IMG/VR virus record: IMGVR_UViG_2585427754_000011 | DNA from: a virus | Lineage: Duplodnaviria > Heunggongvirae > Uroviricota > Caudoviricetes | Direction: 5' to 3' (one strand) | Length of the DNA stretch: 39,448 nt | In this document: in pieces, positions 1,054-22,330 of the stretch | Layout: each line of letters opens with the position of its first letter | How positions within the stretch are numbered: position 1 is the stretch's first letter | Notes under the pieces: model-generated | Seen by the model: only the letters and a program-made list of their open reading frames with translations | Databases searched by the model: none | What the model was told of the DNA's origin: nothing | Position numbers and translations under genes: made by a program

Positions 1054-1054
1054 A

Positions 1055-1077
1055 AAAAATGCCCTCCAGTGGAGAGC
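1055..1077 (-). terminator. Hairpin plus T-run between the KAP NTPase gene and int
   Basis: Minus strand reads GCTCTCC-ACT-GGAGGGC followed by ATTTTTT immediately before the int ATG; the stem contains GGAGG, which could double as the int Shine-Dalgarno. Confidence 0.4.
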
Positions 1078-1132
1078 ATTTTTACTGTATATATAACCAG
1101 TGTCAATGTATGAATTTGTATAGCCATACATA

Positions 1133-2675: not shown

Positions 2676-3245
2676 TTATCTAACATACTTAACTGTTAAG
2701 CTTATAATTTTTCCAATTATTTCAACATCTTCTATCTTGCACTCGAAGGCTCTGTTTCCACCTTCAACGAAAATTCTTCCACCGGGTAAACGAGTGATGT
2801 CGCGGATTGTTATTTCGCCATCAATACTTATTACCCATTTACCATCACGTATATCATCAAATTCTTTATCACAAATAAATTCAGAATTGTTATCTGTGAT
2901 GACAAAAGGTTTTTTAAACGTAGAGGGTAGAAATCCCTTATCAAAAATATAAAAACCGTCTTCCTGCAATGCTCCATCAGACAATAAATATTTTACTACT
3001 TCTATAGTATTTGTATTTGCTGATGCTTGCTTTGAACCATGCCCTGTTGTTAGCCAATTAAGCGAGGTACCCGTTTCAAGGGCGCACTGGATTACCCAAT
3101 CTGCCGGAAAAATATCACGCATATAACGCGTTGCCATGGTGCTCTTAGAAACACCTAAATGATCACAGAGAGCCTGACGGGTACCGAACCCGTATGCTTC
3201 AACCAAACGTTCTATGGCTTTCTTACCGCCGCTATTGAAATCCAC
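2676..3245 (-). CDS. cI: CI-like immunity repressor (phage 186 CI type)
   Basis: Resembles 186 CI as I remember it (EAYGF...HCALETG...LNWLTTGHG) with an HTH-like segment. The ORF-track start at 3332 is a GTG and would overrun the promoter region; I place the start at an internal GTG at 3245 preceded by GGAGG. Confidence 0.75.
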   Translation of the reverse strand: MDFNSGGKKAIERLVEAYGFGTRQALCDHLGVSKSTMATRYMRDIFPADWVIQCALETGTSLNWLTTGHGSKQASANTNTIEVVKYLLSDGALQEDGFYIFDKGFLPSTFKKPFVITDNNSEFICDKEFDDIRDGKWVISIDGEITIRDITRLPGGRIFVEGGNRAFECKIEDVEIIGKIISLTVKYVR

Positions 3246-3272
3246 AAATCCTCCAAAGAAATCCAAAATTCG

Positions 3273-3301
3273 TTGACAGATTCCAAAAGCGATCTTAAAG
3301 T
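3273..3301 (+). promoter_or_regulatory. Candidate pR-like early promoter
   Basis: TTGACA at 3273-3278, 17-bp spacer, TAAAGT at 3296-3301, upstream of apl; sits in the cI/apl switch region. Confidence 0.35.
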
Positions 3302-3390
3302 TGAACCAGAAGTCTTCTTTTGGAGCCTTCACTACTAATCACGACAAACAACGGCTCGCCAAAAGCCATATCTAGAAGGAATGTTGCCTT

Positions 3391-5801: not shown

Positions 5802-6035
5802 ATGCGTAATATTGAAACCCTCACGACTAAAACCGGACCGGATGACGCAGGGCTTAATATTTTACTGACAGAGGCTCGTCTGGAAGAACGCCGGGCAAGG
5901 GCTGAAGCAATGGCAGCTCGCCTTGATAGCCTGGCGTGTCATATCTCATCCCGTCAGCTAAACCACGTGGAAGCGGCAGAACTGCTGCGTGTGACTGCTG
6001 AAGCAATCCAGAACGAAGCGCAGGAGATCCACTAA
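5802..6035 (+). CDS. Hypothetical early protein (77 aa)
   Basis: ATG at 5802 with AGGAG 9 nt upstream; stop overlaps the next start (TAATG). Confidence 0.5.
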   Translation: MRNIETLTTKTGPDDAGLNILLTEARLEERRARAEAMAARLDSLACHISSRQLNHVEAAELLRVTAEAIQNEAQEIH

Positions 6036-6262
6036 TGGCTGATGCAATGGATCTCGTACAGCAGCGCGTTGAAGAAGAACGCCAGCGCCATATCCGTGCT
6101 GCCCGTGCCAAAACGCCGGGCGTGTCCCGCGTGCTTTGCGTTGAGTGTGAAGCGCCAATTCCGCCAGCACGCCGCCGTGCCATTCCGGGTGTGCAGCTTT
6201 GCATTACCTGTCAGGAAATCGCAGAGCTGAAAGGCAAACATTACAACGGAGGTGCTGTATGA
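6035..6262 (+). CDS. TraR/DksA-type C4 zinc-finger protein
   Basis: CVEC...CITC four-cysteine pattern in a 75-aa protein; stop overlaps the dam start (ATGA). Confidence 0.7.
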   Translation: MADAMDLVQQRVEEERQRHIRAARAKTPGVSRVLCVECEAPIPPARRRAIPGVQLCITCQEIAELKGKHYNGGAV

Positions 6263-7116
6263 GCACCATCCTGAAATGGGCGGGAAATAAAACCGCAATT
6301 ATGTCCGAACTGAAAAAACACCTTCCTGCTGGCCCGCGACTGGTTGAACCTTTCGCGGGTTCCTGTGCTGTGATGATGGAGACGGATTATCCCAGCTATC
6401 TGGTTGCGGATATTAATCCTGATTTAATCAACCTCTATAAAAAGGTTGCCGCTGATTGTGAATCATTTATATCTCGCGCCAGAGTTTTATTTAAGGAAGC
6501 AAACAGGGAGGTGGCTTATTACAACATAAGGCAGGAGTTTAATTACTCAACTGAAATTACTGATTTCATGAAAGCGGTATATTTCCTGTATCTCAATCGT
6601 CACGGTTACCGTGGTTTATGTCGCTATAACAAGAGCGGGCATTTCAACATTCCCTACGGTAATTATAAAAATCCGTATTTCCCTGAAAAAGAAATTCGCG
6701 CATTTGCAGAAAAAGCCCAGCGGGCAACGTTTATCTGCGCCAGCTTTGATGAAACGCTGGCGATGTTGAAGGCGGGGGATGTGGTGTATTGCGATCCGCC
6801 GTATGACGGCACGTTTTCCGGTTATCACACTGACGGCTTCACTGAAGATGACCAGTATCACCTGGCATCCGTTCTTGAACATCGGTCATCAGAAGGACAT
6901 CCGGTCATTGTTTCTAACAGTGACACATCCCTGATCCGTTCGCTGTATCGCAATTTTACTCACCACTACATCAAGGCAAAACGCAGCATCGGCGTAGCAG
7001 CTGGTGAGAGTAAATCTGCAACAGAAATCATCGCTGTTTCTGGGGCGTGCTGCTGGGTGGGATTTGATCCTTCGCGTGGCGTGGATAGTTCAGCCGTGTA
7101 CGGAGTGCGTGCATGA
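6259..7116 (+). CDS. dam: DNA adenine methyltransferase (Dam-like)
   Basis: ILKWAGNK N-terminus, FAGS, and DPPY catalytic motif. ATG at 6259 with GGAGGTG upstream. Confidence 0.85.
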
Positions 7117-9527
7117 GCCATGCTGATATGAACAACTGCAGCGGCTTTAACGAGGCCGCCGCAGCATTCTCATGGAACAGCCCGAAAAAGGCTATTAACC
7201 CTTATCTGGACCCGGCGGAAGTTGCGCCGGTTTCTGCGCTTTCAAACCTGATCACTCTGTACGCTGCCGATAACGAGCAGGAACAACTGCGCCGCGAGGC
7301 ACTGAGTGATCAGGTCTGGGAGCGTTATTTCTTTAATGAATCCCGTGATCCTGTCCAGCGCGAAATGGAGCAGGATAAGCTCATTAGCCGGGCAAAGTTG
7401 GCGCATGAGCAGCAGCGTTTTAACCCGGACATGGTCATTCTGGCAGACGTCAGCGTCCAGCCCTCCCATATCAGCAAGCCGCTGATGCAACGTATTGAAT
7501 ACTTCAGCAGCTTGGGCAGGCCAAAGGCTTATTCCCGCTATTTACGTGAGACGATTAAGCCATGTCTGGAACGACTGGAGCATGTACGCGACAGCCAGCT
7601 ATCTGCATCTTTTCGTTTTATGGCAAGCCATGTAGGGCTGGACGGCCTGCTGATTCTGCCTGAAATGAGTCAGGATCAGGTGAAACGCCTGTCTACCCTT
7701 GTCGCTGCGCATATGAGCATGTGCCTTGATGCAGCTTGTGGTGATTTGTATGCCACCGATGACGTTAAGCCGGAAGAAATCCGCAAGACATGGGAAAAGG
7801 TGGCAGCGGAAACCCTGCGTCTGGATGTCATCCCGCCTGCGTTTGAGCAACTCCGTCGGAAAAGAAACCGCCGTAAACCCGTGCCCTATGAACTCATTCC
7901 GGGTTCGCTGGCGCGTATGTTGTGCGCCGACTGGTGGTACCGGAAATTATGGAAAATGCGTTGCGAATGGCGGGAAGAGCAGTTGCGTGCTGTCTGCTTG
8001 GTCAGCAAAAAAGCATCTCCCTATGTCAGCTATGAAGCCGTGATGCATAAACGTGAGCAGCGCCGCAAGTCACTGGAGTTTTTCCGTTCTCATGAACTGG
8101 TGAACGAAGAGGGCGACACGCTGGATATGGAAGACGTGGTAAACGCCAGCAGCAGCAACCCGGCGCACCGCCGCAATGAGATGATGGCCTGTGTTAAAGG
8201 TCTGGAGCTTATCGCGGAAATGCGCGGTGACTGCGCCGTTTTCTACACCATTACCTGTCCGTCACGTTTCCATTCCACGCTCAATAACGGCAGACCAAAC
8301 CCAACCTGGACAAATGCGACGGTAAGACAAAGCAGCGATTATCTGGTCGGCATGTTTGCTGCATTTCGTAAGGCGATGCACAAAGCCGGGTTGCGCTGGT
8401 ATGGCGTGCGGGTGGCTGAGCCGCATCATGACGGTACAGTTCACTGGCACCTGTTGTGTTTCATGCGCAAAAAAGACCGCCGCGCCATTACTGCATTGTT
8501 GCGTAAGTTTGCCATCCGTGAAGACCGCGAGGAACTGGGTAATAACACTGGTCCACGCTTTAAATCTGAGCTGATAAACCCGCGCAAAGGAACGCCGACA
8601 AGCTACATCGCGAAATACATCAGTAAGAACATTGACGGGCGTGGTCTGGCTGGCGAGATCAGCAAGGAAACGGGTAAATCCCTGCGTGATAACGCTGAAT
8701 ACGTTAATGCCTGGGCGTCTCTGCATCGTGTTCAGCAATTCCGCTTCTTTGGCATTCCGGGGCGTCAGGCTTACCGTGAACTGCGATTGCTGGCTGGTCA
8801 GGCGGCAAGGCAACAGGGGGACAAAAAAGCAGGTGCGCCGGTACTGGATAACCCGCGCCTTGATGCCATCCTGGCTGCTGCTGATGCTGGTTGTTTTGCC
8901 ACCTACATCATGAAGCAGGGCGGCGTACTAGTTCCCCGCAAATATCACCTCATCAGAACCGCTTATGAAATCAACGAAGAGCCGACCGCCTATGGCGATC
9001 ACGGCATTCGTATTTATGGCATCTGGTCACCCATTGCAGAGGGCAAGATCTGCACTCATGCAGTGAAGTGGAAAATGGTTCGTAAAGCCGTTGACGTTCA
9101 GGAGGCGGCAGCCGACCAGGGCGCTTGCGCCCCTTGGACTCGTGGCAATAACTGTCCCCTTGCTGAAAATTTGTACCAACAAGGGAAAGACAAATCAGCT
9201 GATGGAGATACCAGAACGGATATCACCCGCATGGATGACAAGGAGTTGCACGATTACCTGCACAGTATGAGCAAAAAAGAGCGCCGGGAACTGGCTGCAA
9301 GGTTACGCCTGGTGAAACCGAAACGGCGTAAAGACTACAAACAGCGAATTACAGACCATCAGCGACAGCAGCTCGTCTATGAACTGGAGTCCAGAGGATT
9401 TAATGGCAGCGAGAAAGAGGTCGATTTACTCCTTCGCGGCGGCAGTATTCCGTCAGGAGCAGGCCTGCGTATCTTCTATCGGAACCAGCGTTTGCAGGAA
9501 GATGATAAGTGGCGGAACCTGTATTAA
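7113..9527 (+). CDS. A: Replication initiation protein A (rolling-circle HUH endonuclease, P2 gpA type)
   Basis: 804 aa with HUH-like TVHWHLL and a YIAKYISKN tyrosine motif; start overlaps the dam stop (ATGA). Confidence 0.9.
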
Positions 9528-9680: not shown

Positions 9681-9869
9681 ATGCAGGACTATTTTTTGGA
9701 GTCTTTGAAGCTCCAGCGCATTGATTTTTTTCTTAAGCTTGTAGCGGCTAGTGAGTGTAGTGATGAAGAGAAGGGGCTGGCTCTGCAGTGGGTTTCTGAA
9801 TTGACTGATGAACTCATGGCAAAAATCAGAAGCCACGAATACAACCGCTCAATGGATGTCATCAGCTGA
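9681..9869 (+). CDS. Putative Tum-like antirepressor (62 aa)
   Basis: First ORF after the LexA box, strong AGGAGG RBS; position matches 186 tum. No sequence-level confirmation. Confidence 0.4.
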   Translation: MQDYFLESLKLQRIDFFLKLVAASECSDEEKGLALQWVSELTDELMAKIRSHEYNRSMDVIS

Positions 9870-9879
9870 GGTGACTTTT

Positions 9880-10113
9880 ATGCGCATTGAAATAATGATC
9901 GATAAAGAGCAGAAGATTAGCCAGTCTACCCTGGACGCCCTTGAATCCGAGCTTTACCGCAATCTGCGCCCCCTGTATCCCAAAACGGTAATTCGTATCC
10001 GCAAAGGTAGCTCTAACGGTGTGGAACTTACCGGATTGCAACTGGACGAAGAAAGAAAACAAGTGATGAAAATTATGCAGAAGGTGTGGGAAGACGACAG
10101 CTGGCTGCATTAA
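9880..10113 (+). CDS. DinI-like protein
   Basis: MRIEIMIDKEQK...WEDDSWL resembles E. coli DinI (MRIEVTIAK...WESADDWF) as recalled; GAGGTGA RBS. Confidence 0.7.
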   Translation: MRIEIMIDKEQKISQSTLDALESELYRNLRPLYPKTVIRIRKGSSNGVELTGLQLDEERKQVMKIMQKVWEDDSWLH

Positions 10114-10432: not shown

Positions 10433-11383
10433 TTAAACTATACCAGCGAAAGAGGTGCTTTTTGCTGGGGCTATGGCATATGAGAATGTTATTTCATTAC
10501 GATCATCGGCATCGCGACTACGATAAAGACTACTTTCAAGTTTAACGGCCAAATAATAACCATTAATATTTTGAATAACTGCAATATCGCCAACTTCAAG
10601 CGATTCTGTATCTTCACTCTTGAAGAATGCTTCAGAATTGGCATCTGTGATTTGATTGAAATCGGTAATGCCTTTAGCAAATACTAAGGAATGGAGACTT
10701 GGCTGACGCTTGTAAATGTAGGCTTGATTACGTCCCCCAACTCCCCACTTTGTCTCAAAAAGCATTTCACCTGAGCCAACCCAATAAGAGTCATAATTTC
10801 CATTTGGCACAAATGTAACTTTGCCTGTGCTTGTGGGGGATTGGTTAGCCCCATCTGGTTGAGATAAATTGACAGGGTTGATCGGAGGCGGTTTTCGGTT
10901 AAATGGGCTAGGTCCAGCCGCTGGGCGTGGTTTCATTTTCTCACCGTGCAAATCATGGATCAGCTCTACATAACTATTCTCATAATCCACAGCATCGAAA
11001 GAAAGCCGAAGGCGCGCACCTACGAAGGTTGGAACTGGCTCAGATAATGAGTTATTAACAATTACAGGGATAACGCGATTACTATTCAATTCTCGCATTA
11101 TCTGACTGGAAATGATCATTTTCTCATAACCTACCCCCCCTGATTTTTGCATATTGGCTTTAGCTACATATGGTTCTGTACAAATGACAAGCACTCGGTC
11201 AGCGCTTGTAAGCCCTTGCTCCATGAAAAGAGTAAGATCACTTCCCAATGTAATATCCCATTGGTCTAAGATTACGTGAACTCCATTTTGTTCAAGCCGG
11301 GTCGCAAGCTTTAACACCCATGCTTTATGCTCTTCACTATCATGAGAATAAGAAATAAAAAGTTTAGGTTTAGTTAGTTCCAT
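10433..11383 (-). CDS. TIR-domain protein with unknown C-terminal domain (316 aa)
   Basis: N-terminus KLFISYSHDSEEHKAW...VLVICTEPY is TIR-like, including a candidate catalytic Glu; ~180-aa C-terminal region without recognisable motifs. ATG start; AT-rich. Confidence 0.75.
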   Translation of the reverse strand: MELTKPKLFISYSHDSEEHKAWVLKLATRLEQNGVHVILDQWDITLGSDLTLFMEQGLTSADRVLVICTEPYVAKANMQKSGGVGYEKMIISSQIMRELNSNRVIPVIVNNSLSEPVPTFVGARLRLSFDAVDYENSYVELIHDLHGEKMKPRPAAGPSPFNRKPPPINPVNLSQPDGANQSPTSTGKVTFVPNGNYDSYWVGSGEMLFETKWGVGGRNQAYIYKRQPSLHSLVFAKGITDFNQITDANSEAFFKSEDTESLEVGDIAVIQNINGYYLAVKLESSLYRSRDADDRNEITFSYAIAPAKSTSFAGIV

Positions 11384-11748
11384 AAAAATCCCATTGTTTT
11401 ATATATGCCATACGATTCATACGATGAATACTAAGTGAAATCTGTGATTTATCTCGAAACTATTAAATTATAATGAGTCTTTAATTTAAATTATTTACAA
11501 CATGCATCTGATTCTAGTTTAAGTAACCATTTCAAACGGAACCATTCTCTTGTAGGTAGTGTCCAGCAGTCGGTTTAGGTAAATTCAAAGCCAGCGTTTG
11601 CCCTTCGCTCACTGTGGACTTTCATCTTTGTAAAACCGTATGTTTCGTTTTTCAAGCGGTCATACAGATACGGATTTGCACTTCCCTTAGTAGTGCATGA
11701 CTATGCCGCATGAAATCGCATGATCGTTTGAGGATCATCTTTGCTGAG

Positions 11749-11776
11749 GCCCGCCAGAATTGGCGGGCTTTTGCTT
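11749..11776 (+). terminator. Rho-independent terminator-like hairpin
   Basis: gcccgcc-agaatt-ggcgggc followed by ttttgctt. Confidence 0.5.
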
Positions 11777-11817
11777 ATCTCATGCAGGTGCATGAAAACC
11801 ACTACATAAAGCGGGCA

Positions 11818-11836
11818 GGCGTGGCGGGGATACGAG
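11818..11836. other. Candidate cos site (cohesive-end sequence)
   Basis: ggcgtggcgggga tacgag cgcgcgctg resembles the P2/186 cos ends as I recall them (GGCGAGGCGGGGAAAGCAC / GGCGTGGCGGGGAAAGCAT); sits in a GC-richer ~350-bp segment between AT-rich cargo. Confidence 0.4.
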
Positions 11837-11944
11837 CGCGCGCTGTATGCCTGAAGTGGCTAAAATAGTATCTGTCATAGGTACAACTTAGTGTAGTATC
11901 ATCCATATAATCCATTGAAATATAATCGACTCTCATTAGAGGTG

Positions 11945-12943
11945 ATGATGAACGGAATCTGGTACGAAAACACTCATACACGCATTCCTAATTTTGAAAC
12001 AACAGTACATCAAAAGCACAAATTCGGTTACGCTTATGAAACAACAAGTCATTTTGTGCATCTGTATGGGCGTGACATGGGATTTAATGTAATATCAGTT
12101 GGGTTAACTGTTATTGAGCAACGAAGTGGAACTCTCAATGATTGGGTTCGGAGAGTATTTGGGGCTCAGAACATATCTCCTTTAGATAATGAAATTGGAC
12201 ATGTAACTAGGGGAGTGTGGCGGCCATCCTTATATTATGTCAATGATACAGAAACAGCATTAGGTATCGATGAGTTTGAAAAAAGAGCAACAGAGCAAGC
12301 TCTAAGAGTTTTGATAGAAAAACTCGATGATATTTTTCTATATGTAGAACCAAGTGCCCATGGTTTGATTTCTTACAGTCATAAATGTAGAGAGCTATTA
12401 ATTCTTGCTTGTACTGAGGTTGAAAATCAATGGGTGTCAATCATTGGTAATTCGAATTTATCTCGTTCAAATGGTCGATACTCCACAAATGATTATGTGA
12501 AATTATTAGATAAGTGTTATTTGTCTGAATATAAAATTCAATATTTGAATTATGACGGATTAAGGCATTTCAAACCTTTTGATGGGTGGAATGCAAGTAC
12601 CCCTACAACATCTTTGTCATGGTATAATGCATATAATAAAACTAAACATGATAGATCAGGAGCATTCCACTTTTCCACTTTAGAAAATGTAATGGATGCA
12701 GTTGCTGCTTGTGTTGTAATGTACTGTGTAAAATATGGCCCGTTTAGCTTATTGGAAGCCAATACGTCTCTATCAACGATCGTTAATCAAAACTTTTCAA
12801 TTTCATTAGATAATAGCAATCCAGCAAGTTATTACATTCCTGAAATTGAACTTCCACCGGATACAAGAACGGATTTATTAATTTATGATTGTTATCGAGA
12901 AAACCATAATAAAGCATGGGTCACTGATCCCCTAGTGCTCTAA
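11945..12943 (+). CDS. Hypothetical protein (~332 aa), possibly HEPN/Abi-like
   Basis: ORF-track start at 11915 is TTG; ATG at 11945 follows GAGG. A single Rx4H-like motif (RSGAFH) is the only hint of a HEPN fold. AT-rich. Confidence 0.5.
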   Translation: MMNGIWYENTHTRIPNFETTVHQKHKFGYAYETTSHFVHLYGRDMGFNVISVGLTVIEQRSGTLNDWVRRVFGAQNISPLDNEIGHVTRGVWRPSLYYVNDTETALGIDEFEKRATEQALRVLIEKLDDIFLYVEPSAHGLISYSHKCRELLILACTEVENQWVSIIGNSNLSRSNGRYSTNDYVKLLDKCYLSEYKIQYLNYDGLRHFKPFDGWNASTPTTSLSWYNAYNKTKHDRSGAFHFSTLENVMDAVAACVVMYCVKYGPFSLLEANTSLSTIVNQNFSISLDNSNPASYYIPEIELPPDTRTDLLIYDCYRENHNKAWVTDPLVL

Positions 12944-12999
12944 TTTCCTGCTAAAGGGAGCTTTTAATTATAAACGCTCCCTTCGGTTGTCGCTATTTA

Positions 13000-13626
13000 T
13001 TATATATCAATAGAGTTTTGAAATTTTAATAACTGCCATCTTGTTAATAGTGGTTTTATTGCTATGTTGTGTTGTGTATTTATTTTTAAACCTTCGAATT
13101 TCGAATATCCATTTTCCAAGGCTTCCACTGAAAAATGAATGGTTTTTGTTATCGGGTTTATAGCACAAAGATTTAGGTCATATAAAGTATGAATGTCACT
13201 TCTGAGCAATAATCCATTGCTAATATGATTGTGACTATCGTTTCGATATACATTAATGTGAGCAGCATCAAGAATATCAACAAGCTTACAGCCCGTAACC
13301 GCACAAGTAGGATTTGATTTTAATAGCTGGTCGCGAAATGTTTTTTGCCCACTTCGTTGTTTTATTTGCCGTTCTACAATTTGCCGTTGATCTTCACCCA
13401 TTAAAGTGGGGGTGTCTTTATCAGCTTCGCTGGCGTTGAGCTCCAGAATAATAGTATGTTGGGCGGTAAGCAAAGCAACAGCCCATTGATAGTTAACTTC
13501 TTGGATGGACATTTGCCCATTGTAGCGTGGAGTTTCATCTATAAGTTGTGACATTGTAATATTGGATAATTTACGGTACTGGTTGCCGCAGTATGCTATA
13601 AATTCTTTAGCTGGCTCAAAAACCAC
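13000..13626 (-). CDS. HNH endonuclease-domain protein (HNH_2-like)
   Basis: DAAHI...NGLLLRSDIHTLYD matches the HNH motif pattern. Annotated start is GTG; true start uncertain. Confidence 0.65.
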   Translation of the reverse strand: MVFEPAKEFIAYCGNQYRKLSNITMSQLIDETPRYNGQMSIQEVNYQWAVALLTAQHTIILELNASEADKDTPTLMGEDQRQIVERQIKQRSGQKTFRDQLLKSNPTCAVTGCKLVDILDAAHINVYRNDSHNHISNGLLLRSDIHTLYDLNLCAINPITKTIHFSVEALENGYSKFEGLKINTQHNIAIKPLLTRWQLLKFQNSIDI

Positions 13627-13673
13627 TCTGGGTTCATCAAATTCATGGCCATTATCACAACGCCACTCTGATT

Positions 13674-13967
13674 TTATAGTTTTCCTTTGAAGAATTTTTT
13701 TGCTTTGCAGTCTAGGTTAATACATTTGTTACGCTTCTTATTAATGCTCTGTGTTTCTAATTTTTCAATAACAGATATACCTAATATATTTTCTCTGTTG
13801 GTAATAATATCACCGTCTTTTACATTTTTGTGGTTCGCTACAAAACTGTCATAGCGATAGAAAACTGATGAGTCATCGGGATAACTATCATTTCCCCAGT
13901 ATCTAAGATCGTCTTTCTCAATTGCCTTAAAAAAAACCATACTTGCTGTACCATGAACTTTTCCCAC
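13674..13967 (-). CDS. Hypothetical small protein (~90-97 aa)
   Basis: ORF 48 bp upstream of the HNH gene in a different frame; GTG start with an internal ATG at 13940. Confidence 0.3.
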   Translation of the reverse strand: MGKVHGTASMVFFKAIEKDDLRYWGNDSYPDDSSVFYRYDSFVANHKNVKDGDIITNRENILGISVIEKLETQSINKKRNKCINLDCKAKKFFKGKL

Positions 13968-14024
13968 TAATCAAATTTTGGTTTGTTCTATCGAACAGCA
14001 AAGCATGTTGATTTACAAGAGAAA

Positions 14025-15056
14025 TCATCCCAAAGAATATGGCTCAAATCGCAAAATTTTTTGTTCTAACCAGTCATTTACTTCACGCATCCTTTTTTGC
14101 AACGGTAATAATTCATTTCGCACAAACACATTTGCCGCCTTCTCCACATCCCCAAACCCCCCAACATTGCTAGGCATTATCCCCATCATTTGTGGTGGCA
14201 CACGATGCGCTGCCATCATGTCATCCCGACTCACGTTCTTGATGTTAAGAAATTCATCCTTCGCTGCGACTTCTGATAGCGGGATAATCTGAAGCCCGTC
14301 CTTTTTGCCGTTAGGCGAGTACATAAACAGGTTACGAAAGTTACCAGGACCTTTGGCACTTTTCATCGCGTTGCGGAGGTTGTTCACATCCTCCTGGTTC
14401 TGCGCGGCGTCGGTCATGTACATGATGAAGCCTGCATGGCTGCCGTTAATGTAATACTTCCGGCGGAACAGCGTGGCGGACTCGTTGAGCAGGGCGGATG
14501 GAATGGCAGAAAGGTAACCTGGCAGACCATAAATCTCCTGGTTGATATCCGGCTCCATCAGGTGGAAGACGTTACCTTTTGTGAACTGATACGGCTGTGT
14601 CGTCAGGCTGTATTGCACAAACCAGTAGGTATCCAGGTCTAATCCGCGTCGGGTGTATTTTGCCAGAGCTGGCTCAAGGGCGATAACTTCACCGAAGCGG
14701 TTCGTGCGTTTCTCCAGGTAGGCGTTACCAAATACCAGATAGTCCTGCACAAAACGTGAAAAAGCCTGCTGGCTGAGCAGCGGGTGAGGGATGTAGGTAC
14801 TGGTCAGAATGTTGCACTTTACTGCAATCGGGGAACTGTGATGCACAGCAGCGCGGAAGGTGCGCGCCAGTCCGTCAAAGCTGACGGGAGGCTCATACCA
14901 GCGATCTGTCTGTACGCATTCCACATAGTCCAGCAGTTCGCGGCGGTCAAGTACTGGAATGGGATCACCGAAGCTGAATGCTTCGGCTGTAGTCTGGCTT
15001 TTATGCTGGATCTGGTTCGTCGACGCAGCGCGGTTCTTCTTACTCTTTCCCATCAA
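14025..15056 (-). CDS. Q: Portal protein (P2 gpQ type)
   Basis: 343 aa, same size and position as P2 Q; overlaps the start of the terminase ATPase gene. Confidence 0.85.
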   Translation of the reverse strand: MMGKSKKNRAASTNQIQHKSQTTAEAFSFGDPIPVLDRRELLDYVECVQTDRWYEPPVSFDGLARTFRAAVHHSSPIAVKCNILTSTYIPHPLLSQQAFSRFVQDYLVFGNAYLEKRTNRFGEVIALEPALAKYTRRGLDLDTYWFVQYSLTTQPYQFTKGNVFHLMEPDINQEIYGLPGYLSAIPSALLNESATLFRRKYYINGSHAGFIMYMTDAAQNQEDVNNLRNAMKSAKGPGNFRNLFMYSPNGKKDGLQIIPLSEVAAKDEFLNIKNVSRDDMMAAHRVPPQMMGIMPSNVGGFGDVEKAANVFVRNELLPLQKRMREVNDWLEQKILRFEPYSLG

Positions 15057-16819
15057 AAAAACTCCACAATATTGCTGGTATTGGCGGATTCGCCCTGCAG
15101 CGGTTCGTTAAACAGTGCGTGCATCGTTGCCCAGGCCAGATCGGCGTGGCTGGCTTCTTCGCTGCGGCTGGCTTCATAGGTCGGGCGGTTGCCACTGGCG
15201 GTGGTGGCGCGACGGATTGCCATAAATGACTGGGCTATGTCGGTGTGTCCGGCGTCAAACTCCAGACGGCGGTGGCTGATAATGTCGTAGGCCTTGAGTA
15301 CCAGAGCGTTTTTAACGTTGGGGTTGTAGACAAACTCCCGGACGGCAGGAAAGAACGCTTTCACGTTCTCATAAACCCCGTGACCGACGCCTGTCGAGTC
15401 GATGCCGATATAGGTCACGTTGTACTGCTCGGTCAGTTTTTTGATTGCATCAGCCTGGGCGCGGAAGTCCATCCCGCGCCACTGGTGACGCTCAAGAATG
15501 CGAAACTTACCGCCTGGCACGGCTGGCGGTGCCACCACCACGCACCCGGCGCTGTCGCCGTTCTGCGTACCTTTTGCCGGGTCATAACCGATCCACACTT
15601 CGCGCCAGCCAAATGGGCGCAGCGCCAGTGCATGAAAGTCGGTCCAGACTTCCCAGCTGTCCACCATGCACGCCTGCAGCTCGCTGAGCGGGAACACGGA
15701 CGCGAGATCGTCCACGAACTCACACATCAGCAGGTTCTGGTATTCGTCCGGGCTGTACTCCATGCGTAACTGGTCGAGGTCGAACAGGTTACAGCCGCCG
15801 CGCACCGCATCTTCCACGGTGACTATCTGGCGGTATTGCCCGTCTGCGCACAGCAGGCCGGGGGCCAGATTGCTGTGGGACAGGTCGATGTCCACCTTAT
15901 CGGCTTTGTTGCGCCCACGGTTGAACAGCGCACCGGACCAGAGCGGATAAGCACTGTGTGTCAGGCTGGATGGCGTGGAAAAATAGGTTTGTCGCCATTT
16001 TTTGTGAATAGCCATACCGGAAGCCACTTTGCGCAGCTCCTGGAATTTCGGTATCCAGAAATATTCATCCAGATACAGGTTGCCGTGGTAACTCTGGGCC
16101 GTGCGGGCATTGGTGCCGAGGAAGTAAAGCGTGGCCCCGTTAGGAAGCACCATCGGATCGCCTTTCAGCTCCACCTCCACTTCTTTGGCAAAGTCGATGA
16201 TGTACTGTTTAAAGACGTGGGCCTGAGCCTTGCTGGCAGAAAGGAAAATCTGGTTACGCCCGGTCAGCAGGGCGTCAATCAGGGCTTCACGGGCAAAGTA
16301 AAAGGTCGCGCCGATCTGGCGAGACTTCAGCAGGTTGCGGATGCGATTGGTTTTTCCGGCTTCCCACCAGTGGCGCTGGTAGTTGAACATGGAGGAATGG
16401 AAGATTTCTTCCAGTTTCTCAATCTGTTCATCGGTGAAAACATTCTTTTCCGGCTGACGGCGCGGGCCCTTGTTGCGGTTGGCGACGTTAGGGTTTAAGT
16501 CAGCTTCGTTGCCGCCATTGTTAAACTTGCCGATCCGCGCGTGGCGCTCCGACTGGCGCGCCAGCAGGTCAATTTCTTTGAAATCTTTCCCTTCTTTATG
16601 CTCCTTCATGATGAGCTGGCAGTAGCGTGCGGCGGTGGTGAGCTGCATCTGATCCAGCGGCCCATAGTCACCCCACTTGTCGCGTTTTTTCCAGCTGTGA
16701 ACGGTTGCAACTTTCTCGCCCAGCATTTCAGCAATGCGGGCTACGCGGTATCCCTGAAAGTACAGCAGCATGGCCTGCCGACGGGGATCGAGATCTGCGG
16801 GTGTCAGTGTGGTGTTCAT
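15053..16819 (-). CDS. P: Terminase large subunit / ATPase (P2 gpP type)
   Basis: 588 aa, divergent from the capsid operon as in P2. Confidence 0.9.
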   Translation of the reverse strand: MNTTLTPADLDPRRQAMLLYFQGYRVARIAEMLGEKVATVHSWKKRDKWGDYGPLDQMQLTTAARYCQLIMKEHKEGKDFKEIDLLARQSERHARIGKFNNGGNEADLNPNVANRNKGPRRQPEKNVFTDEQIEKLEEIFHSSMFNYQRHWWEAGKTNRIRNLLKSRQIGATFYFAREALIDALLTGRNQIFLSASKAQAHVFKQYIIDFAKEVEVELKGDPMVLPNGATLYFLGTNARTAQSYHGNLYLDEYFWIPKFQELRKVASGMAIHKKWRQTYFSTPSSLTHSAYPLWSGALFNRGRNKADKVDIDLSHSNLAPGLLCADGQYRQIVTVEDAVRGGCNLFDLDQLRMEYSPDEYQNLLMCEFVDDLASVFPLSELQACMVDSWEVWTDFHALALRPFGWREVWIGYDPAKGTQNGDSAGCVVVAPPAVPGGKFRILERHQWRGMDFRAQADAIKKLTEQYNVTYIGIDSTGVGHGVYENVKAFFPAVREFVYNPNVKNALVLKAYDIISHRRLEFDAGHTDIAQSFMAIRRATTASGNRPTYEASRSEEASHADLAWATMHALFNEPLQGESANTSNIVEFF

Positions 16820-16865
16820 GGCACAAACCTACAGCCTTGAATGACGGCTTTCCCCGCCTGCGGTT

Positions 16866-16883
16866 TGTGTGGTTGTCGGTACA
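16866..16883. promoter_or_regulatory. Late-promoter activator site (TGT-N12-ACA)
   Basis: TGT gtggttgtcggt ACA, 79-96 bp upstream of O in the P/O divergent region. Confidence 0.4.
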
Positions 16884-16961
16884 AATACCGCGCATTGTTT
16901 CACTGCCCCCATCACCGCAACCATAAGGCTCCAGTAAGTTTTTTCTAACGGAGCACGGCTC

Positions 16962-17795
16962 ATGACAGTGAAAGCAAAGCGTTTTCGCATCGGGGTGGAA
17001 GGTGCCACCACCGACGGACGCGAAATCCAGCGTGAATGGCTGGAACAGATGGCAGCCAGCTACAACCCGGCGGTGTATACCGCGCTGATTAACCTTGAGC
17101 ACATCAAGTCTTATCTGCCGGACAGCACCTTTAACCGCTACGGCAAGGTGACGGCGCTGTTTGCTGAAGAAATCACGGAAGGTCCGCTGGCAGGCAAGAT
17201 GGCGCTGTATGCCGACGTTGAGCCAACGGAGTCCCTGGTGGAGCTGGTGAAAAAAGGCCAGAAATTATTCACCTCTATGGAAGTCAGCCCGAAGTTCGCT
17301 GATACGGGCAAAGCCTACCTGGTCGGCCTGGCTGCCACTGATGACCCTGCCAGTCTGGGCACTGAAATGCTGACATTCAGCGCCAGTGCAGCCCATAACC
17401 CACTGGCAAACCGCAAGCAGAATCCTGCCAATCTCTTTACCGCTGCAGAGGAAACGGTGATCGAACTGGAAGAAATCCAGGACGACAAACCGTCCCTGTT
17501 TGCCCGTGTCACGGCGCTGTTTACCAAAAAAGAGCAGTCCGATGACGCCCGGTTCTCTGATGTGCATAAGGCCGTGGAGCTGGTCGCCACTGAGCAGCAG
17601 AACCTGAGCGCACGCACCGAAAAATCCCTGTCTGAGCAGGAAGAACGCCTGTCTGAGCTGGAGACTGCCCTGCAGGCACAGCAAACCGCCTTTAACGAAC
17701 TGGTGGACAAGCTGAGTCATGAAGACAGCCGCCAGGACTACCGCCAGCGTGCAACAGGCGGTAACGCCCCCGCTGACACTCTGACCAATTGCTGA
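16962..17795 (+). CDS. O: Capsid scaffold protein (gpO)
   Basis: FRIGVEGATTDGREI...LVGLAATDDPASLGTE matches P2 gpO as recalled. Confidence 0.85.
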   Translation: MTVKAKRFRIGVEGATTDGREIQREWLEQMAASYNPAVYTALINLEHIKSYLPDSTFNRYGKVTALFAEEITEGPLAGKMALYADVEPTESLVELVKKGQKLFTSMEVSPKFADTGKAYLVGLAATDDPASLGTEMLTFSASAAHNPLANRKQNPANLFTAAEETVIELEEIQDDKPSLFARVTALFTKKEQSDDARFSDVHKAVELVATEQQNLSARTEKSLSEQEERLSELETALQAQQTAFNELVDKLSHEDSRQDYRQRATGGNAPADTLTNC

Positions 17796-17811
17796 TGGAG
17801 CACAAAACCCG

Positions 17812-18870
17812 ATGAAGAAGAATACCCGCTTTGCTTTTAACGCTTACCTGCAGCAGCTGGCGCGTCTGAACGGTGTGGCAGTTGAAGAACTGTCCAGCAA
17901 GTTCACCGTGGAGCCGTCTGTACAGCAGACGCTGGAAGACCAGATCCAGCAGTCCGCCGCTTTCCTGACGCTGATTAACGTCACGCCAGTGACTGAGCAG
18001 TCCGGTCAGCTGCTGGGGTTGGGTGTTGGCAGCACCATTGCCGGAACCACTGACACCACCGCGAAAGAGCGTGAACCTGTCGATCCTACGCTGATGGTCG
18101 ATGTGGAATACAAATGCGAGCAGACCAACTTTGACACGGTACTGACCTACGCGAAGCTGGACCTGTGGGCGAAGTTTCAGGATTTCCAGGTGCGTATCCG
18201 TGACGCCATCGTGAAACGTCAGGCACTGGACCGCATCATGATCGGCTTTAACGGCGTGAAGCGTGCGAAAACCTCCAACCGTAGCGAAAACCCGCTGCTG
18301 CAGGATGTGAACAAAGGCTGGTTACAGAAAATCCGTGAGGATGCACCGGATCACGTCATGGGCAGCAGCACCACGGGCGGTGAAACCACACCGCGTGCGG
18401 TGAAAGTCGGTAAAGGTGGCGAATATGCCAACCTGGACGCCGTGGTGATGGATGCCGTCAATGAGCTTATCGACGTTGTCTACCAGGACGATGACGATCT
18501 GGTGGTGATTTGCGGGCGTGAACTGCTGTCTGACAAGTATTTCCCGCTGGTCAACAAAGAGCAGGAAAACAGTGAAAAACTGGCTGCCGATATGATCATC
18601 AGTCAGAAACGCATGGGTGGCCTGCAGGCGGTGCGTGCGCCGTTCTTCCCGCCGAATGCGCTGCTGATCACCCGTCTGGATAACCTGTCCATCTACTGGC
18701 AGGAAGATACCCGCCGCCGTTCAGTTATCGACAACCCGAAACGTGACCGGATTGAAAATTTTGAATCCGTTAACGAAGCCTATGTGGTTGAGGACTATCG
18801 CTGCGCTGCACTGGTGGAAAACATCCAGATTGGTGACTTCAGCGCCGCCGCAGCAGAAACCGGAGCGTAA
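17812..18870 (+). CDS. N: Major capsid protein (gpN)
   Basis: RFAFNAYL...KFTVEPSV...LQDV..GWLQK matches P2 gpN as recalled. Confidence 0.9.
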   Translation: MKKNTRFAFNAYLQQLARLNGVAVEELSSKFTVEPSVQQTLEDQIQQSAAFLTLINVTPVTEQSGQLLGLGVGSTIAGTTDTTAKEREPVDPTLMVDVEYKCEQTNFDTVLTYAKLDLWAKFQDFQVRIRDAIVKRQALDRIMIGFNGVKRAKTSNRSENPLLQDVNKGWLQKIREDAPDHVMGSSTTGGETTPRAVKVGKGGEYANLDAVVMDAVNELIDVVYQDDDDLVVICGRELLSDKYFPLVNKEQENSEKLAADMIISQKRMGGLQAVRAPFFPPNALLITRLDNLSIYWQEDTRRRSVIDNPKRDRIENFESVNEAYVVEDYRCAALVENIQIGDFSAAAAETGA

Positions 18871-18873
18871 TTC

Positions 18874-19524
18874 ATGAGCCTGAGTCCCGCACGGCAGCAT
18901 CGCCTGCGCGTTCAGGCTGAACAGGCCGCTCGCGAGGGTGGTAGTGTTCGCCACGCGTCGGGCTATGACCTGATGCTGCTGCAACTGGCGGAAGACCGCC
19001 GTCGTCTCAAGGGCGTTCAGTCCACGGTCAAAAAAGCGGAAATCAAGGTGGAGCTGCTGCCGAAATATGCCGCCTGGGCGGAGGGCGTTCTGGCTGCCGG
19101 AGGCGCTCAACAGGATGACGTGCTGATGTACGTGATGCTGTGGCGCATTGATGCCGGAGATTATGCCGGGGCGCTGGAGATCGGGCGTCATGCCCTGCGT
19201 CATGGCTGGGTGATGCCGCTGGGTAACCGCAACGTGCAGACCGTGCTGGCAGAGGAAATGGCAGATGCAGCCCAGAGCGCAATGCTTGCCGCCACCTGCT
19301 TTGATGCCGACCTGTTGCTGCAGACGCTGGAGCTGACAGACGGTCTGGATATGCCGGACCAGTCACGGGCGCGTCTGCATAAAGCGATTGGCGCTGTCCT
19401 GAGTGAAAGCAACCCGGCTTCCGCCCTTAATCATCTCAACCATGCGTTACAGCTCGATCCTCGCTGTGGCGTGAAAAAAGACAAACAGCAGCTGGAGCGC
19501 AGACTGCGCAATGACAGCCGCTGA
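18874..19524 (+). CDS. M: Terminase small (endonuclease) subunit (gpM)
   Basis: Position and size (216 aa) in the O-N-M-L block. Confidence 0.75.
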   Translation: MSLSPARQHRLRVQAEQAAREGGSVRHASGYDLMLLQLAEDRRRLKGVQSTVKKAEIKVELLPKYAAWAEGVLAAGGAQQDDVLMYVMLWRIDAGDYAGALEIGRHALRHGWVMPLGNRNVQTVLAEEMADAAQSAMLAATCFDADLLLQTLELTDGLDMPDQSRARLHKAIGAVLSESNPASALNHLNHALQLDPRCGVKKDKQQLERRLRNDSR

Positions 19525-19619
19525 CAGAACGTGCCCCCGCGCACGGGCGGCACGGGGTGGCGAAAGGCACTGCCACATCAAAACCCCGTCCACCGCCCTC
19601 TATTTCAGGAGAAAGCAGC

Positions 19620-20084
19620 ATGAAGTTTGTTGCGCCAGAACAGGCACCGGAACAGGCGGAAATCATCAGGAATACGCCGTTCTGGCCTGATGTGGACCTG
19701 TCGGAGTTTCGCAGCGTGATGCGCACTGACGGCACGGTGACGCAGCCGCGTTTAAAGCAGGTTGCGCTGTCGGCAATTTCGGAGGTCAACGCAGAGCTGT
19801 ATGAGTTTCGCAGACGTCAGCAGATGCTGGGGTATGTGTCACTGGCTGAGGTTCCGGCGGAACAGCTGGACGGCAAAAGTGAGCGCATTCAGCACTATTT
19901 CAACGCGGTTTACTGCTGGGCACGCGCCATGCTCAACGAACGATACCAGGACTATGACGCCACGGCATCCGGTGTGAAGCGAGGCGAGGAACTGGCGGAA
20001 GCCAGCGGTGATTTGTGGCGTGACGCCCGCTGGGCCATCAGCCGGGTGCAGGATGCGCCGCACTGCACAGTGGAGCTTATCTGA
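19620..20084 (+). CDS. L: Head completion protein (gpL)
   Basis: ATG at 19620 with CAGGAG RBS (the ORF-track start at 19557 is GTG). Confidence 0.7.
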   Translation: MKFVAPEQAPEQAEIIRNTPFWPDVDLSEFRSVMRTDGTVTQPRLKQVALSAISEVNAELYEFRRRQQMLGYVSLAEVPAEQLDGKSERIQHYFNAVYCWARAMLNERYQDYDATASGVKRGEELAEASGDLWRDARWAISRVQDAPHCTVELI

Positions 20085-20287
20085 TGAAAGTGCGTGCGCA
20101 TCAGTATGACACGGTGGACGCGCTTTGCTGGCGTCATTACGGGCGCACGCAGGGTGTCACGGAGCAGGTACTGAAGGCAAATCCGGGGCTTGCCGAATTT
20201 GGCCCCTTTTTACCTCACGGGCTGCAGGTGGAGCTGCCGGACATTCCGACCACCACCACCGTGCAGACCGTCCAGCTATGGGACTGA
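20084..20287 (+). CDS. X: Tail protein X (gpX)
   Basis: 67-aa ORF in the gpX position. Confidence 0.6.
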   Translation: MKVRAHQYDTVDALCWRHYGRTQGVTEQVLKANPGLAEFGPFLPHGLQVELPDIPTTTTVQTVQLWD

Positions 20288-20290
20288 ATT

Positions 20291-20506
20291 ATGACGCTTG
20301 AGCGAATCAGCGCCTTTATCACGTATTGCATCGCCGTTGTGCTGGCCTGGCTGGGCGATTTGTCCATCAAGGATGCCTCAACGCTGGGCGGCCTGATGAT
20401 CGGTGTGCTGATGCTGGCTATCAACTGGTACTACAAACACAAAGCCTACCAGCTTCTGCGCGACGGGCAGATCTCGCGGGAGGACTATGAATCCATCAAT
20501 CGTTAA
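20291..20506 (+). CDS. Y: Holin (gpY-like)
   Basis: 71-aa protein with hydrophobic helices, directly upstream of the endolysin. Confidence 0.6.
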   Translation: MTLERISAFITYCIAVVLAWLGDLSIKDASTLGGLMIGVLMLAINWYYKHKAYQLLRDGQISREDYESINR

Positions 20507-20999
20507 ACGCTGCCTTGTCGGGGCCGTGCTGGCTATTGCTGCCACGCTGCCGGGGTTTCAGCAACTTCACACCTCCGTGGAGGGGCTGAAACTGATTGCC
20601 GATTACGAAGGCTGTCGTCTGCAGCCGTATCAGTGCAGCGCGGGTGTCTGGACCGACGGCATTGGTAATACGTCGGGCGTCATTCCCGGCAAAACTATTA
20701 CGGAACGACAGGCAGCAGAAGGGCTGATCTCCAACGTGCTACGTGTGGAGCGGGCGCTGGAAAGGTGTGTGAAGCAACAGCCGCCGCAGAAGGTGTATGA
20801 CGCTACGGTGTCGTTTGCCTTCAACGTGGGGACGGGCAATGCCTGTAGTTCCACGCTGGTGAAATTGCTCAATCAGCGGCGCTGGGCGGATGCGTGCCGA
20901 CAGTTGCCGCGCTGGGTTTATGTGAAAGGTGTTTTTAATCAGGGGCTGGATAACCGCCGTGCGCGGGAGATGGCCTGGTGCTTACAGGGAGCAAACTGA
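20487..20999 (+). CDS. K: Endolysin (phage lysozyme)
   Basis: EGLKLIADYEGCRLQPYQC...GVWTDGIGNT is lysozyme-like. Confidence 0.8.
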   Translation: MNPSIVKRCLVGAVLAIAATLPGFQQLHTSVEGLKLIADYEGCRLQPYQCSAGVWTDGIGNTSGVIPGKTITERQAAEGLISNVLRVERALERCVKQQPPQKVYDATVSFAFNVGTGNACSSTLVKLLNQRRWADACRQLPRWVYVKGVFNQGLDNRRAREMAWCLQGAN

Positions 21000-21000
21000 A

Positions 21001-21378
21001 ATGAAAAAGAAAGTAATCAGCGGGCTGTTTCTGATGTTATGGATGGCGCTGTTGATCGCAGCAATGGTGTATCCGCAGGGGATTTTTCCGGTACTGGCAG
21101 CGTCCGGTGTCTGGGTAGCCTGTCTGCTGACATGGGCGGTAATTCCGGTAGCACTGGCTGCGTTAATTAAGAACGGCCCGCTCTGGCAGGAGTTGAGGGC
21201 ATCTTTGCTAAAGACCATTACCCGAAAAGAAAACGTATTTATCAGCTGGGTGATGCGATTGCTGATTGTCGTAAGTTTCGCCTGGACGGGGTGGGCTATT
21301 ACCCTGGTCTTTTATCTGCTGACCGTTATTGCCTTCTGGATGATCCGTAATCAGATTGCGCAACAGGTAGCAGCATGA
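21001..21378 (+). CDS. lysA: LysA-like membrane protein
   Basis: Multiple hydrophobic segments; positional equivalent of P2 lysA. Confidence 0.5.
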   Translation: MKKKVISGLFLMLWMALLIAAMVYPQGIFPVLAASGVWVACLLTWAVIPVALAALIKNGPLWQELRASLLKTITRKENVFISWVMRLLIVVSFAWTGWAITLVFYLLTVIAFWMIRNQIAQQVAA

Positions 21379-21803
21379 ACCGGTTGCTGCTGGTTGTGCT
21401 GGCGTTATTACTGGCGGCGCTGGGCTGGCAGACGTGGCGGCTGGCTGATGCCAGCCAGACCATCAGCACGCAGGCAGACGAGCTTCGGAGCAAAAGCCAG
21501 GCACTGGCAAAGAGCAACAGCCAGCTTATCAGCCTGTCCATTCTGACTGAAACCAATAACCGGGAGCAGGCGCGGCTCTATGCCGAAGCAGAACAGACCA
21601 GTGTACTGCTGAGACAACGACAACACCGGATTGAGGAACTGAAACGTGAGAACGAGGATTTACGCCGCTGGGCTGATACTCCTTTGCCTGCTGACATTAT
21701 CCGGCTGCGGGAACGCCCCACACTCACCGGAGGTGCAGCTTACCGTCAGTGGTTGTCCGCGAGTGACGCCGTGTCGGCTGGATCAGGCAATGCCGCGCAC
21801 TAA
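21375..21803 (+). CDS. lysB: i-spanin (LysB/Rz-like)
   Basis: N-terminal TM segment then a coiled-coil-like region. Confidence 0.65.
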   Translation: MNRLLLVVLALLLAALGWQTWRLADASQTISTQADELRSKSQALAKSNSQLISLSILTETNNREQARLYAEAEQTSVLLRQRQHRIEELKRENEDLRRWADTPLPADIIRLRERPTLTGGAAYRQWLSASDAVSAGSGNAAH

Positions 21804-21936
21804 CGGTGATCTGAACGCGTTGCTGGATGAAACGGAGGCTGCCTGGGCGGTCTGTGCAGACAAAGTGGACATGATTATTGCGTGTCAGGAGCGAAACAGT
21901 GAACAAACCACAATCCCTGCGCCACGCCCTCAATAA
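21646..21936 (+). CDS. lysC: o-spanin lipoprotein (LysC/Rz1-like), embedded in and extending past lysB
   Basis: Signal peptide with lipobox LTLSGC; alternate frame overlapping the lysB 3' end; GTG start. Confidence 0.55.
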   Translation: MRTRIYAAGLILLCLLTLSGCGNAPHSPEVQLTVSGCPRVTPCRLDQAMPRTNGDLNALLDETEAAWAVCADKVDMIIACQERNSEQTTIPAPRPQ

Positions 21937-22330
21937 AGCGGTGCCTTATGTCCGCAATAACCCGGACAAACTGCATCTGTTTGTGGATAACGGTTCGCTA
22001 GTTGCTACGGGGGCCAGCTCCATGTCATGGGAGTACCGTTACACCCTGAACGTGGTGATTGAGGATTTCAGCGGCGACCAGAATCTGTTGATGGCCCCGG
22101 TTTTGCTGTGGCTGCGAGATAACCAGCCCGATGCAATCAATAACCCGGTGTTACGGGAAAAGTTATTCACCTTTGAAGTGGATATTTTGCGCAACGATGT
22201 CTGTGATATCAGCCTTAACCTGCAACTGACGGAACGTGTGCTGGTCAGCACTGACGGCACTGTGTCCAGCGTTGAAGCTGTAGCGGAACCCGATGAACCT
22301 GAAGAAGTGTGGACGGTGAAACGTGGCTGA
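21899..22330 (+). CDS. R: Tail completion protein R
   Basis: KPQSLRHAL...FVDNGS matches the P2 gpR N-terminus as recalled; GTG at 21899 after AGGAG. Confidence 0.75.
   Translation: MNKPQSLRHALNKAVPYVRNNPDKLHLFVDNGSLVATGASSMSWEYRYTLNVVIEDFSGDQNLLMAPVLLWLRDNQPDAINNPVLREKLFTFEVDILRNDVCDISLNLQLTERVLVSTDGTVSSVEAVAEPDEPEEVWTVKRG

Follow-up and report, generated by a model that had tools for sequence, protein, structure and literature searches.

The nearest known systems to the locus considered here are a defence hotspot of P2-like phages, located in the gpA-gpQ interval next to the cohesive-end site cos (PMC9122126; Rousset et al. 2022), and two kinds of nuclease. VcaM4I, an enzyme that restricts T4gt, uses its EVE domain to flip a 5-methylcytosine (5mC) or 5-hydroxymethylcytosine (5hmC) base into a pocket (PMC7897488, PMC6765204); its catalytic residues have been described (PMC7897488). 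In the characterised HEPN ribonucleases, the histidine of the Rx4-6H motif is essential (PMC3710099). The present work deals with the cargo of such a hotspot in IMG/VR virus record IMGVR_UViG_2585427754_000011, a stretch of 39,448 nucleotides which, at its full length, is called the window. A previous inspection of its letters, the sequence-only reading, had described three AT-rich open reading frames (ORFs) between cos and the portal gene, namely a protein with a possible HEPN motif, a stand-alone HNH nuclease and a small ORF, as a gene combination that it did not recognise. The three ORFs are indeed present, with 332, 208 and 97 residues, and they derive from genuine genes. Nevertheless, the interval of roughly 2.15 kb that separates cos from the portal gene Q represents the cos-left half of the P2 gpA-gpQ hotspot and holds two independent, convergent single-gene cassettes. 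One is gene A (11945-12943, plus strand), intact, of 332 residues and belonging to an unannotated superfamily, a candidate single-gene defence effector. The other (13000-13954, minus strand, from the ancestral ATG at 13954-13952 to the stop at 13002-13000) is the pseudogene of what was very probably a type IV restriction endonuclease. Taken as a whole, this explanation, a dead type IV gene next to a candidate effector, is favoured by a small degree.

The window corresponds to an E. coli P2-like (Peduoviridae) prophage inserted beside ybjL/ybjM, with a right flank 100% identical to E. coli chromosomes. The left border of the cargo is cos, a 19-nt cohesive-end sequence, GGCGTGGCGGGGATACGAG (11818-11836), which is identical to the putative cos annotated in Salmonella phage SEN8; it shares 14 of its 19 positions with P2 cosL and aligns to P2 cosL/cosR, and the right end of P2 aligns with its upstream flank. 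The right border is the portal gene Q (14025-15056, minus strand), adjoined by the terminase gene P (15053-16819, minus strand). Since in P2 no more than 167 bp, with the tQ terminator, separates cos from Q, and tin and old are on the other (gpA) side of cos, the DNA found here is regarded as inserted cargo. Its G+C content is 35.4% (11945-13967), against 56.1% in the late genes (14025-22000). As in the published definition of the hotspot, the slot lies between gpA and gpQ of a P2-like prophage, adjacent to cos, and it is variable among related phages. In fact, among 5426 complete E. coli genomes, 1279 gave any match and only 12 contained at least 80% of the query, the other genomes matching chiefly at the cos region and the edge of the portal gene. 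The 12 RefSeq carriers, E. coli C21 among them, are 98.2-98.3% identical to the cargo region, and SEN8 is its sole carrier among 50,697 phage records. The proposal of a variable prophage cargo, as opposed to conserved backbone, was therefore borne out. Between the two convergent genes an inverted repeat was read from the sequence, AAGGGAGC / 14 nt / GCTCCCTT (12954-12983), which would possibly act as a bidirectional terminator; a consensus terminator scan did not report it. At the other end, no obvious hairpin was seen between the Q stop and the HNH pseudogene (13968-14024), unlike the situation with P2 tQ, and therefore the late P-Q transcript may read into the pseudogene.

The two ORFs of the minus strand are the remains of a single gene. 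The 5' fragment (13674-13967, 97 residues) contains most of a PUA/EVE-like sensor and opens at a fortuitous upstream GTG, while the 3' fragment (13000-13626, 208 residues) comprises the end of the sensor, a linker and the HNH domain. They lie in different frames, separated by a 47-bp gap, and both match one phage family of 319 residues, phrog_21425, the shorter ORF covering positions 7-91 of 319 (E 7.4e-41). The longer one aligns with positions 119-222 of the 286 of the PADLOC HNH model, that is, with its C-terminal part only. The matching DNA of SEN8, 91.5% identical, encodes a single 319-residue 'HNH endonuclease', and a single ORF of 313-319 residues is found in SEN8/L026, L027 and L031 (IMG/VR loci) and in a Pseudescherichia P2 remnant; all of these have the uninterrupted sensor-nuclease polypeptide which the window lacks. 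A database search returned 1152 homologues, those listed as full length having 313-332 residues, and the truncated version of 208 residues forms a cluster of 54 sequences with E. coli as source name. Thus, of the two options that had been considered for the small ORF, the remnant of a frameshifted gene was upheld and the partner protein was discarded, the fusion of both ORFs in homologues having been verified, and the supposedly stand-alone HNH nuclease turned out to be a fragment.

Three lesions were mapped by DNA alignment and codon-level comparison with intact copies, all on the minus strand. The first adds 2 nt in a T run (T8; 13929-13936, nucleotide 18 of the coding sequence), putting the ancestral ATG out of frame with loss of the invariant A5-W6-S7, so that the ancestral start now reads 38 codons and then a stop. 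The second is a 6-nt in-frame deletion (about 13803-13810, nucleotide 144) which changes GDIVIIT into GDIIT in a core strand of the sensor, removing the near-invariant V50 and I51, and is specific to the window. The third, the shortening of A8 to A7 (13695-13701, nucleotide 258), is the -1-nt frameshift responsible for the two separate ORFs. Lesions 1 and 3 also occur in E. coli C21 and in IMG/VR loci L023-L025, and C21, representing a sister lineage, carries an additional nonsense codon at codon 149. Moreover, the ratio of nonsynonymous to synonymous substitution rates (dN/dS) was 0.09-0.23 between intact copies, versus 0.19-0.35 in comparisons with the frameshifted lineage. Sequencing error was ruled out as the cause of the frameshifts, since the same indels occur in C21, in three further IMG/VR contigs and in the 54-member cluster. 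The gene is thus considered, with high confidence, a lineage-wide pseudogene, which now reads as the 97- and 208-residue ORFs and is most likely non-functional.

The ancestral protein had an N-terminal PUA/EVE-like sensor with an inserted Zn ribbon, a linker and a C-terminal HNH_2 nuclease. The presence of the HNH domain, already claimed from the letters alone, was confirmed by PF13391 at residues 108-157 of the 208-residue ORF (E 6.3e-9), a second Pfam scan giving this model E 9.5e-10, and the 208-residue ORF aligns to the HNH domain of VcaM4I (6yex, E 1.2e-8). In the nuclease domain H234, N248, H257 and D261 are invariant, the catalytic histidine and the metal ligands being kept, and the Zn ribbon ligands of the sensor (C79, C84, C101 and H105) are likewise invariant. 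The sensor shows the beta-barrel fold of the PUA superfamily (EVE/SRA/YTH/ASCH-like), and its fold matches include McrB N-terminal domains, ASCH, YTH, THYN1 bound to 5mC DNA and the 5hmC-specific PD-T4-3; residues 1-160 gave no Pfam match even at E<=1, either with the fragments of the window or with the intact SEN8 protein. Consequently, the ancestral gene is quite probably a type IV (modification-dependent) restriction enzyme of the PUA/EVE-HNH type. By analogy with VcaM4I, its sensor would flip out and recognise a modified base, and the HNH_2 nuclease would then cut the modified (phage) DNA. Speculatively, a conflict with self-methylation could account for the pseudogenisation. Homologues 78% identical are located in the hotspots of P4 satellites, beside psu, delta and the alpha primase gene, a location consistent with a defence role. 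In the P4-like satellites L007-L011 the intact homologue (6001-6957, plus strand) is always convergent with a 291-residue protein (7036-7911, minus strand), which has neither a Pfam match nor BLASTP similarity to gene A; they could be a recurring pair or merely two neighbours. The term 'HNH' is absent from the main text of two papers on the P2/P4 hotspots, PMC9122126 being one of them.

Gene A, on the other hand, remains intact, and its dN/dS of 0.09-0.19 indicates purifying selection. It starts at the ATG at 11945, with GAGGTG 3 nt before ATGATG, the mechanical ORF opening at a TTG at 11915. At least 811 homologues of near-constant length and 48-60% identity were found in Proteobacteria, Bacteroidota and Verrucomicrobiota. 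An exhaustive profile search (clusters at 50% identity) extended the superfamily to 2598 cluster representatives at E<=1e-3, distant members aligning only at positions ~110-270. In addition, a motif scan of 100,044 species genomes led to 218 confirmed loci, and the labels of the best 80 of these represent at least 10 phyla, the candidate phyla radiation included: Proteobacteria (several classes), Arcobacter, Bacillota, Cyanobacteria, Melainabacteria, Bacteroidota, Ereboglobus, Planctomycetota, Treponema, Acidobacteria, Sorangium, Fusobacterium and Patescibacteria. The protein consists of a family-specific, beta-rich N-terminal domain (~1-95) and a conserved helical, probably HEPN-like core (~100-270). 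Throughout the superfamily R149, E158, E160, T181, D183, Y184, F212, W215, W226, Y227, Y230, N231, K234, H235 and Y297 are invariant, and the motifs of the core are E158-x-E160, T181-x-D183-Y184 and W226-Y227-x2-Y230-N231-x2-K234-H235-x-R237, with R237 present in all 38 close and 38 of the 41 distant relatives. The N-terminal cluster H22, E32, H36 and H39 is restricted to the close family, as is the pair E117-x3-R121.

The homology searches, which placed the HNH gene with VcaM4I-like enzymes, gave no match for gene A in Pfam, PADLOC or NCBIfam (June 2026), and PHROGs returned only a phrog of unknown function. Scans of 40 distant superfamily members against Pfam, NCBIfam and PADLOC provided nothing useful, a sequence search of the PDB with two gene A profiles gave no meaningful match, and no papers were found by protein accession or phrog id. 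Resemblances to motifs of other families (tyrosine-recombinase RKHRY, the ADP-ribosyltransferase R-S-ExE, HD, Fic and phospholipase D) were rejected on order, spacing or fold.

As regards its genomic surroundings, gene A homologues have been located on 14 plasmids, 10 of them conjugative, and in a variety of mobile or defence-rich settings, as a solitary gene in each case. One is an integrative and conjugative element of Pectobacterium; elsewhere the homologue lies beside a DUF4238 protein in Acinetobacter, beside BrnT in Ereboglobus and close to RloB and an ATPase on a plasmid of Bacteroides, and, in an island also present on a conjugative IncF plasmid of Klebsiella, it is flanked by a NACHT protein and Gabija. 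In E. coli FY10, a 74% identical homologue (L015, 7001-7996) is followed by a 449-residue DUF4145 protein (8149-9498). The latter also matches PF27235 and has the canonical RNKAAH HEPN motif, and the pair is set within a mosaic of integrase fragments and insertion sequence elements. In Mucilaginibacter, the homologue is near AIPR and a methyltransferase fragment; here a 371-residue ORF with no Pfam match (L019, 5872-6987) ends 14 bp upstream of it and may be co-transcribed, and this ORF was not seen as a partner of gene A elsewhere. An all-against-all BLAST of the three neighbours on either side, in 75 analysable genomes, revealed no universal partner, the only recurrent arrangement being a subclade within type I restriction-modification (R-M) operons (7 of the 75 genomes), in the order hsdM, 241-residue ORF, hsdS, gene A homologue, hsdR and YgjP. 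These loci (L073, L080-L084 and L087; e.g. L084, 1115-9379) belong to gut Alphaproteobacteria and Oxalobacter metagenome-assembled genomes; the 241-residue ORF is unannotated, and the gene after hsdR encodes a YgjP-like metallopeptidase. Type I R-M subunits are also the commonest Pfam families among 142 immediate neighbours. Such an operon niche is the one described for PrrC and several HEPN families (PMC3710099).

Two explanations that would bring the HNH gene back to life, alone or in partnership, must be weighed against these data. Some features speak against a dead gene: the HNH catalytic motif, AAH...NHISNGLLLRSDIHTLYD, is still intact in the 208-residue ORF, and an A_AAA_AAA heptamer stands at lesion 3, making residual HNH expression conceivable. 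The split gene could remain functional if translation began at the internal ATG (MVFFKAIE...) and the A7 run allowed a -1 ribosomal frameshift or slippage in transcription, which would make it a phase-variable or programmed switch. The run fits X_XXY_YYZ in the zero frame, a -1 shift restores the ancestral frame exactly, and both frame-breaking lesions fall in homopolymer runs. Nevertheless, intact relatives have A8 and need no frameshift, no stimulatory structure was found downstream of A7 (z -0.29), and shifting at this run would leave the losses caused by lesions 1 and 2 unrepaired; the nonsense codon of the sister lineage and the raised dN/dS of the frameshifted one point in the same direction. 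Both the functional split and the switch are therefore very improbable, and the gene continues to be regarded as dead. Just as remote is a joint action of gene A with the HNH nuclease and the small ORF, for example as sensor, effector and partner. It is true that every P2-like phage with either gene A or the HNH gene in the cos-Q slot has the two side by side (SEN8, L022-L027, L031, Pseudescherichia and the 12 E. coli genomes). However, the small ORF belongs to the HNH gene, and the two genes, far from forming an operon, converge on an inverted repeat. In seven individually examined non-P2 contexts gene A was without an adjacent HNH gene, and its neighbours in the 75 genome loci include no recurring HNH family. 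Moreover, the P4-hotspot homologues of the HNH gene have a different, unrelated neighbour, the 291-residue protein, and the HNH gene decays whilst gene A is constrained. Gene A and the HNH gene form no system: each occurs independently elsewhere, so the trio suggested by the sequence-only reading does not stand as a combination. Nor is the content of the slot entirely unfamiliar, since one gene is of a recognised restriction enzyme kind and the slot is a published hotspot.

The nature and the role of gene A are far less settled. The modelled core is probably a HEPN-like fold, a bundle with an insertion of ~55 residues and extra N- and C-terminal beta elements, although several results weigh against this assignment: a Foldseek comparison of the model with the PDB produced nothing better than E 0.3, Pfam HEPN-clan models matched neither gene A nor the 40 distant relatives, hhalign of the family and superfamily against DUF4145 (HEPN, RNKAAH) gave only 0.1-0.3% probability, and the canonical Rx4-6H is not conserved in the family. 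The Rx4H motif that had been pointed out (RSGAFH) does exist, at residues 237-242, but its value as a HEPN catalytic mark was lost. A canonical HEPN RNase using R237-x4-H242 would agree with the fold, with the conservation of R237, with the H242 of the window protein and with the E117-x3-R121 pair, which resembles a secondary HEPN motif (PMC3710099). Nevertheless, just 4 of the 38 close relatives and 6 of the 41 distant ones have H242, the residue that should be essential, none of the conserved arginines is followed at a distance of 4-6 residues by another conserved histidine, no HEPN profile matches and the invariant residues are elsewhere (K234, H235, E158 and E160), which makes this possibility improbable. 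Activity as a HEPN RNase is thus unproven, and RNA cleavage as the mode of action is doubtful. HEPN RNases build composite sites at the interface of a dimer. A separate explanation is that gene A has no anti-phage role and would be an accessory gene of mobile elements with another task, such as counteracting defence, regulation, the modification of DNA or nucleotides, or selfish addiction. In its favour, and against a defence role, most immediate neighbours in the 75 genomes are unrelated singletons, so that the defence association is only qualitative. Furthermore, gene A matched none of the 5027 PADLOC-DB v2 models at E<=0.1, one of 41 superfamily members showed one weak match (PtuB, E 1.6e-4), and an enzyme that binds small molecules or nucleotides could also have so many aromatic and charged residues among its invariant ones. 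On the contrary, the presence in P2 defence hotspots, the proximity to Gabija, NACHT, DUF4238, DUF4145, AIPR, RloB and toxin-antitoxin genes, the subclade embedded between hsdS and hsdR, and the sporadic multi-phylum spread at 48-60% identity, typical of horizontally mobile defence genes, render a non-defence function rather unlikely.

A defence role for gene A is, on balance, given a little better than an even chance. As a self-contained abortive-infection or defence effector, it would sense infection through its N-terminal domain and halt phage growth through the action of its HEPN-like core on a nucleic acid, most likely RNA; those members set in type I R-M operons may back up restriction in a PrrC-like manner. 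More tentatively, gene A could represent a new, widespread family of single-gene anti-phage effectors, with a HEPN-like scaffold, a non-canonical site made of E158-x-E160 and K234-H235-x-R237, interchangeable N-terminal sensors and, in some lineages, a connection to R-M.

The prophage carries further genes related to defence. On the gpA side of cos, in the position of tin and old, there is a bSEFIR/TIR gene (10433-11383, minus strand; PADLOC bSEFIR, E 4.6e-70; Pfam TIR_2 and SEFIR). In E. coli C21 the same slot contains an RNase A-like toxin and a CDI-type immunity gene with the cos-Q cargo unchanged, and bSEFIR is also absent from L023-L025, which have something else there. The cos-Q block is thus inherited as a unit in P2-like phages while the gpA-side cargo is swapped (bSEFIR, RNase A-like toxin, others), the cos-Q side of the hotspot behaving as a module inherited separately from the gpA-cos side. 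By the integrase (1-1131, minus strand), an island of 32-35% G+C encodes a 443-residue KAP-family P-loop NTPase (1133-2464, minus strand), which matches the candidate system PDC-S20 of PADLOC from end to end (E 2.4e-171). Another island, with 35% G+C, encodes a 598-residue ATPase-Toprim protein of the OLD/PARIS-fusion type (22773-24569; PADLOC AriAB 1e-25, GajA-like; Pfam AAA_15/AAA_21 and DUF3226). This gene (minus strand) lies between late-region ORFs, on the strand opposite to them, in what is presumably the tail-gene region and possibly the P2 orf30 slot; it would be a third cargo site of the prophage. The remaining landmarks are a CI-type repressor (2676-3332), gpA (7113-9527, PF05840) and a DinI-like gene (9808-10113). 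Also upstream of the cargo, a cos-proximal segment of ~270 bp (11600-11866) is 87-94% conserved in more than 1200 E. coli genomes, as well as in P2-like phages of Klebsiella, Salmonella and Yersinia. Annotations sometimes place a small hypothetical ORF there (a 52-residue ORF at 11710-11868 in the window), and the segment is more likely a packaging (cos) recognition region than a gene.

The finding as a whole is mostly ordinary, that is, a known hotspot with a known type of restriction enzyme, now dead. The decayed PUA/EVE-HNH gene does document the pseudogenisation in situ of a defence gene within a P2 hotspot, with lesions that are lineage-wide; a recent survey found such pseudogenes to be rare (about 2% of P2 pseudogenes) and argues that defences are swapped before they decay. 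Gene A is a testable candidate from a superfamily absent from Pfam, NCBIfam, PADLOC and the PDB, and, should it confer phage protection, it would add a single-gene system of broad distribution, possibly with a new catalytic version of HEPN.

When compared with known systems, the closest to gene A are the HEPN abortive-infection and toxin RNases, such as the MNT-HEPN toxins (8xdj/7ae2/5yep), AbiV (9bj5) and the HEPN domain of Csm6, with PrrC and RloC as the examples embedded in R-M systems. Gene A differs from them in having no conserved Rx4-6H, no profile similarity to Pfam HEPN families or DUF4145 and no ABC-ATPase or MNT partner, and in possessing another set of invariant residues (ExE, TxDY and WYxxYNxxKHxR), besides the bundle insertion of ~55 residues and the extra terminal beta elements. 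For the HNH gene, the closest known system is the EVE-HNH group of VcaM4I and TspA15I (6yex; PMC7897488, PMC6765204). The sensor of the clade found in the window has no sequence match to VcaM4I or to Pfam EVE, it contains the inserted CxxxxC...CxxxH Zn ribbon, and the clade is found in P2 and P4 hotspots of Enterobacterales. Finally, the locus resembles the described P2-like hotspot (PMC9122126) in being a cos-proximal, AT-rich gpA-gpQ interval, swapped among near-identical prophages and filled with defence genes. In P2, however, the cargo is wholly on the gpA side of cos, whereas the window has a second block on the Q side.

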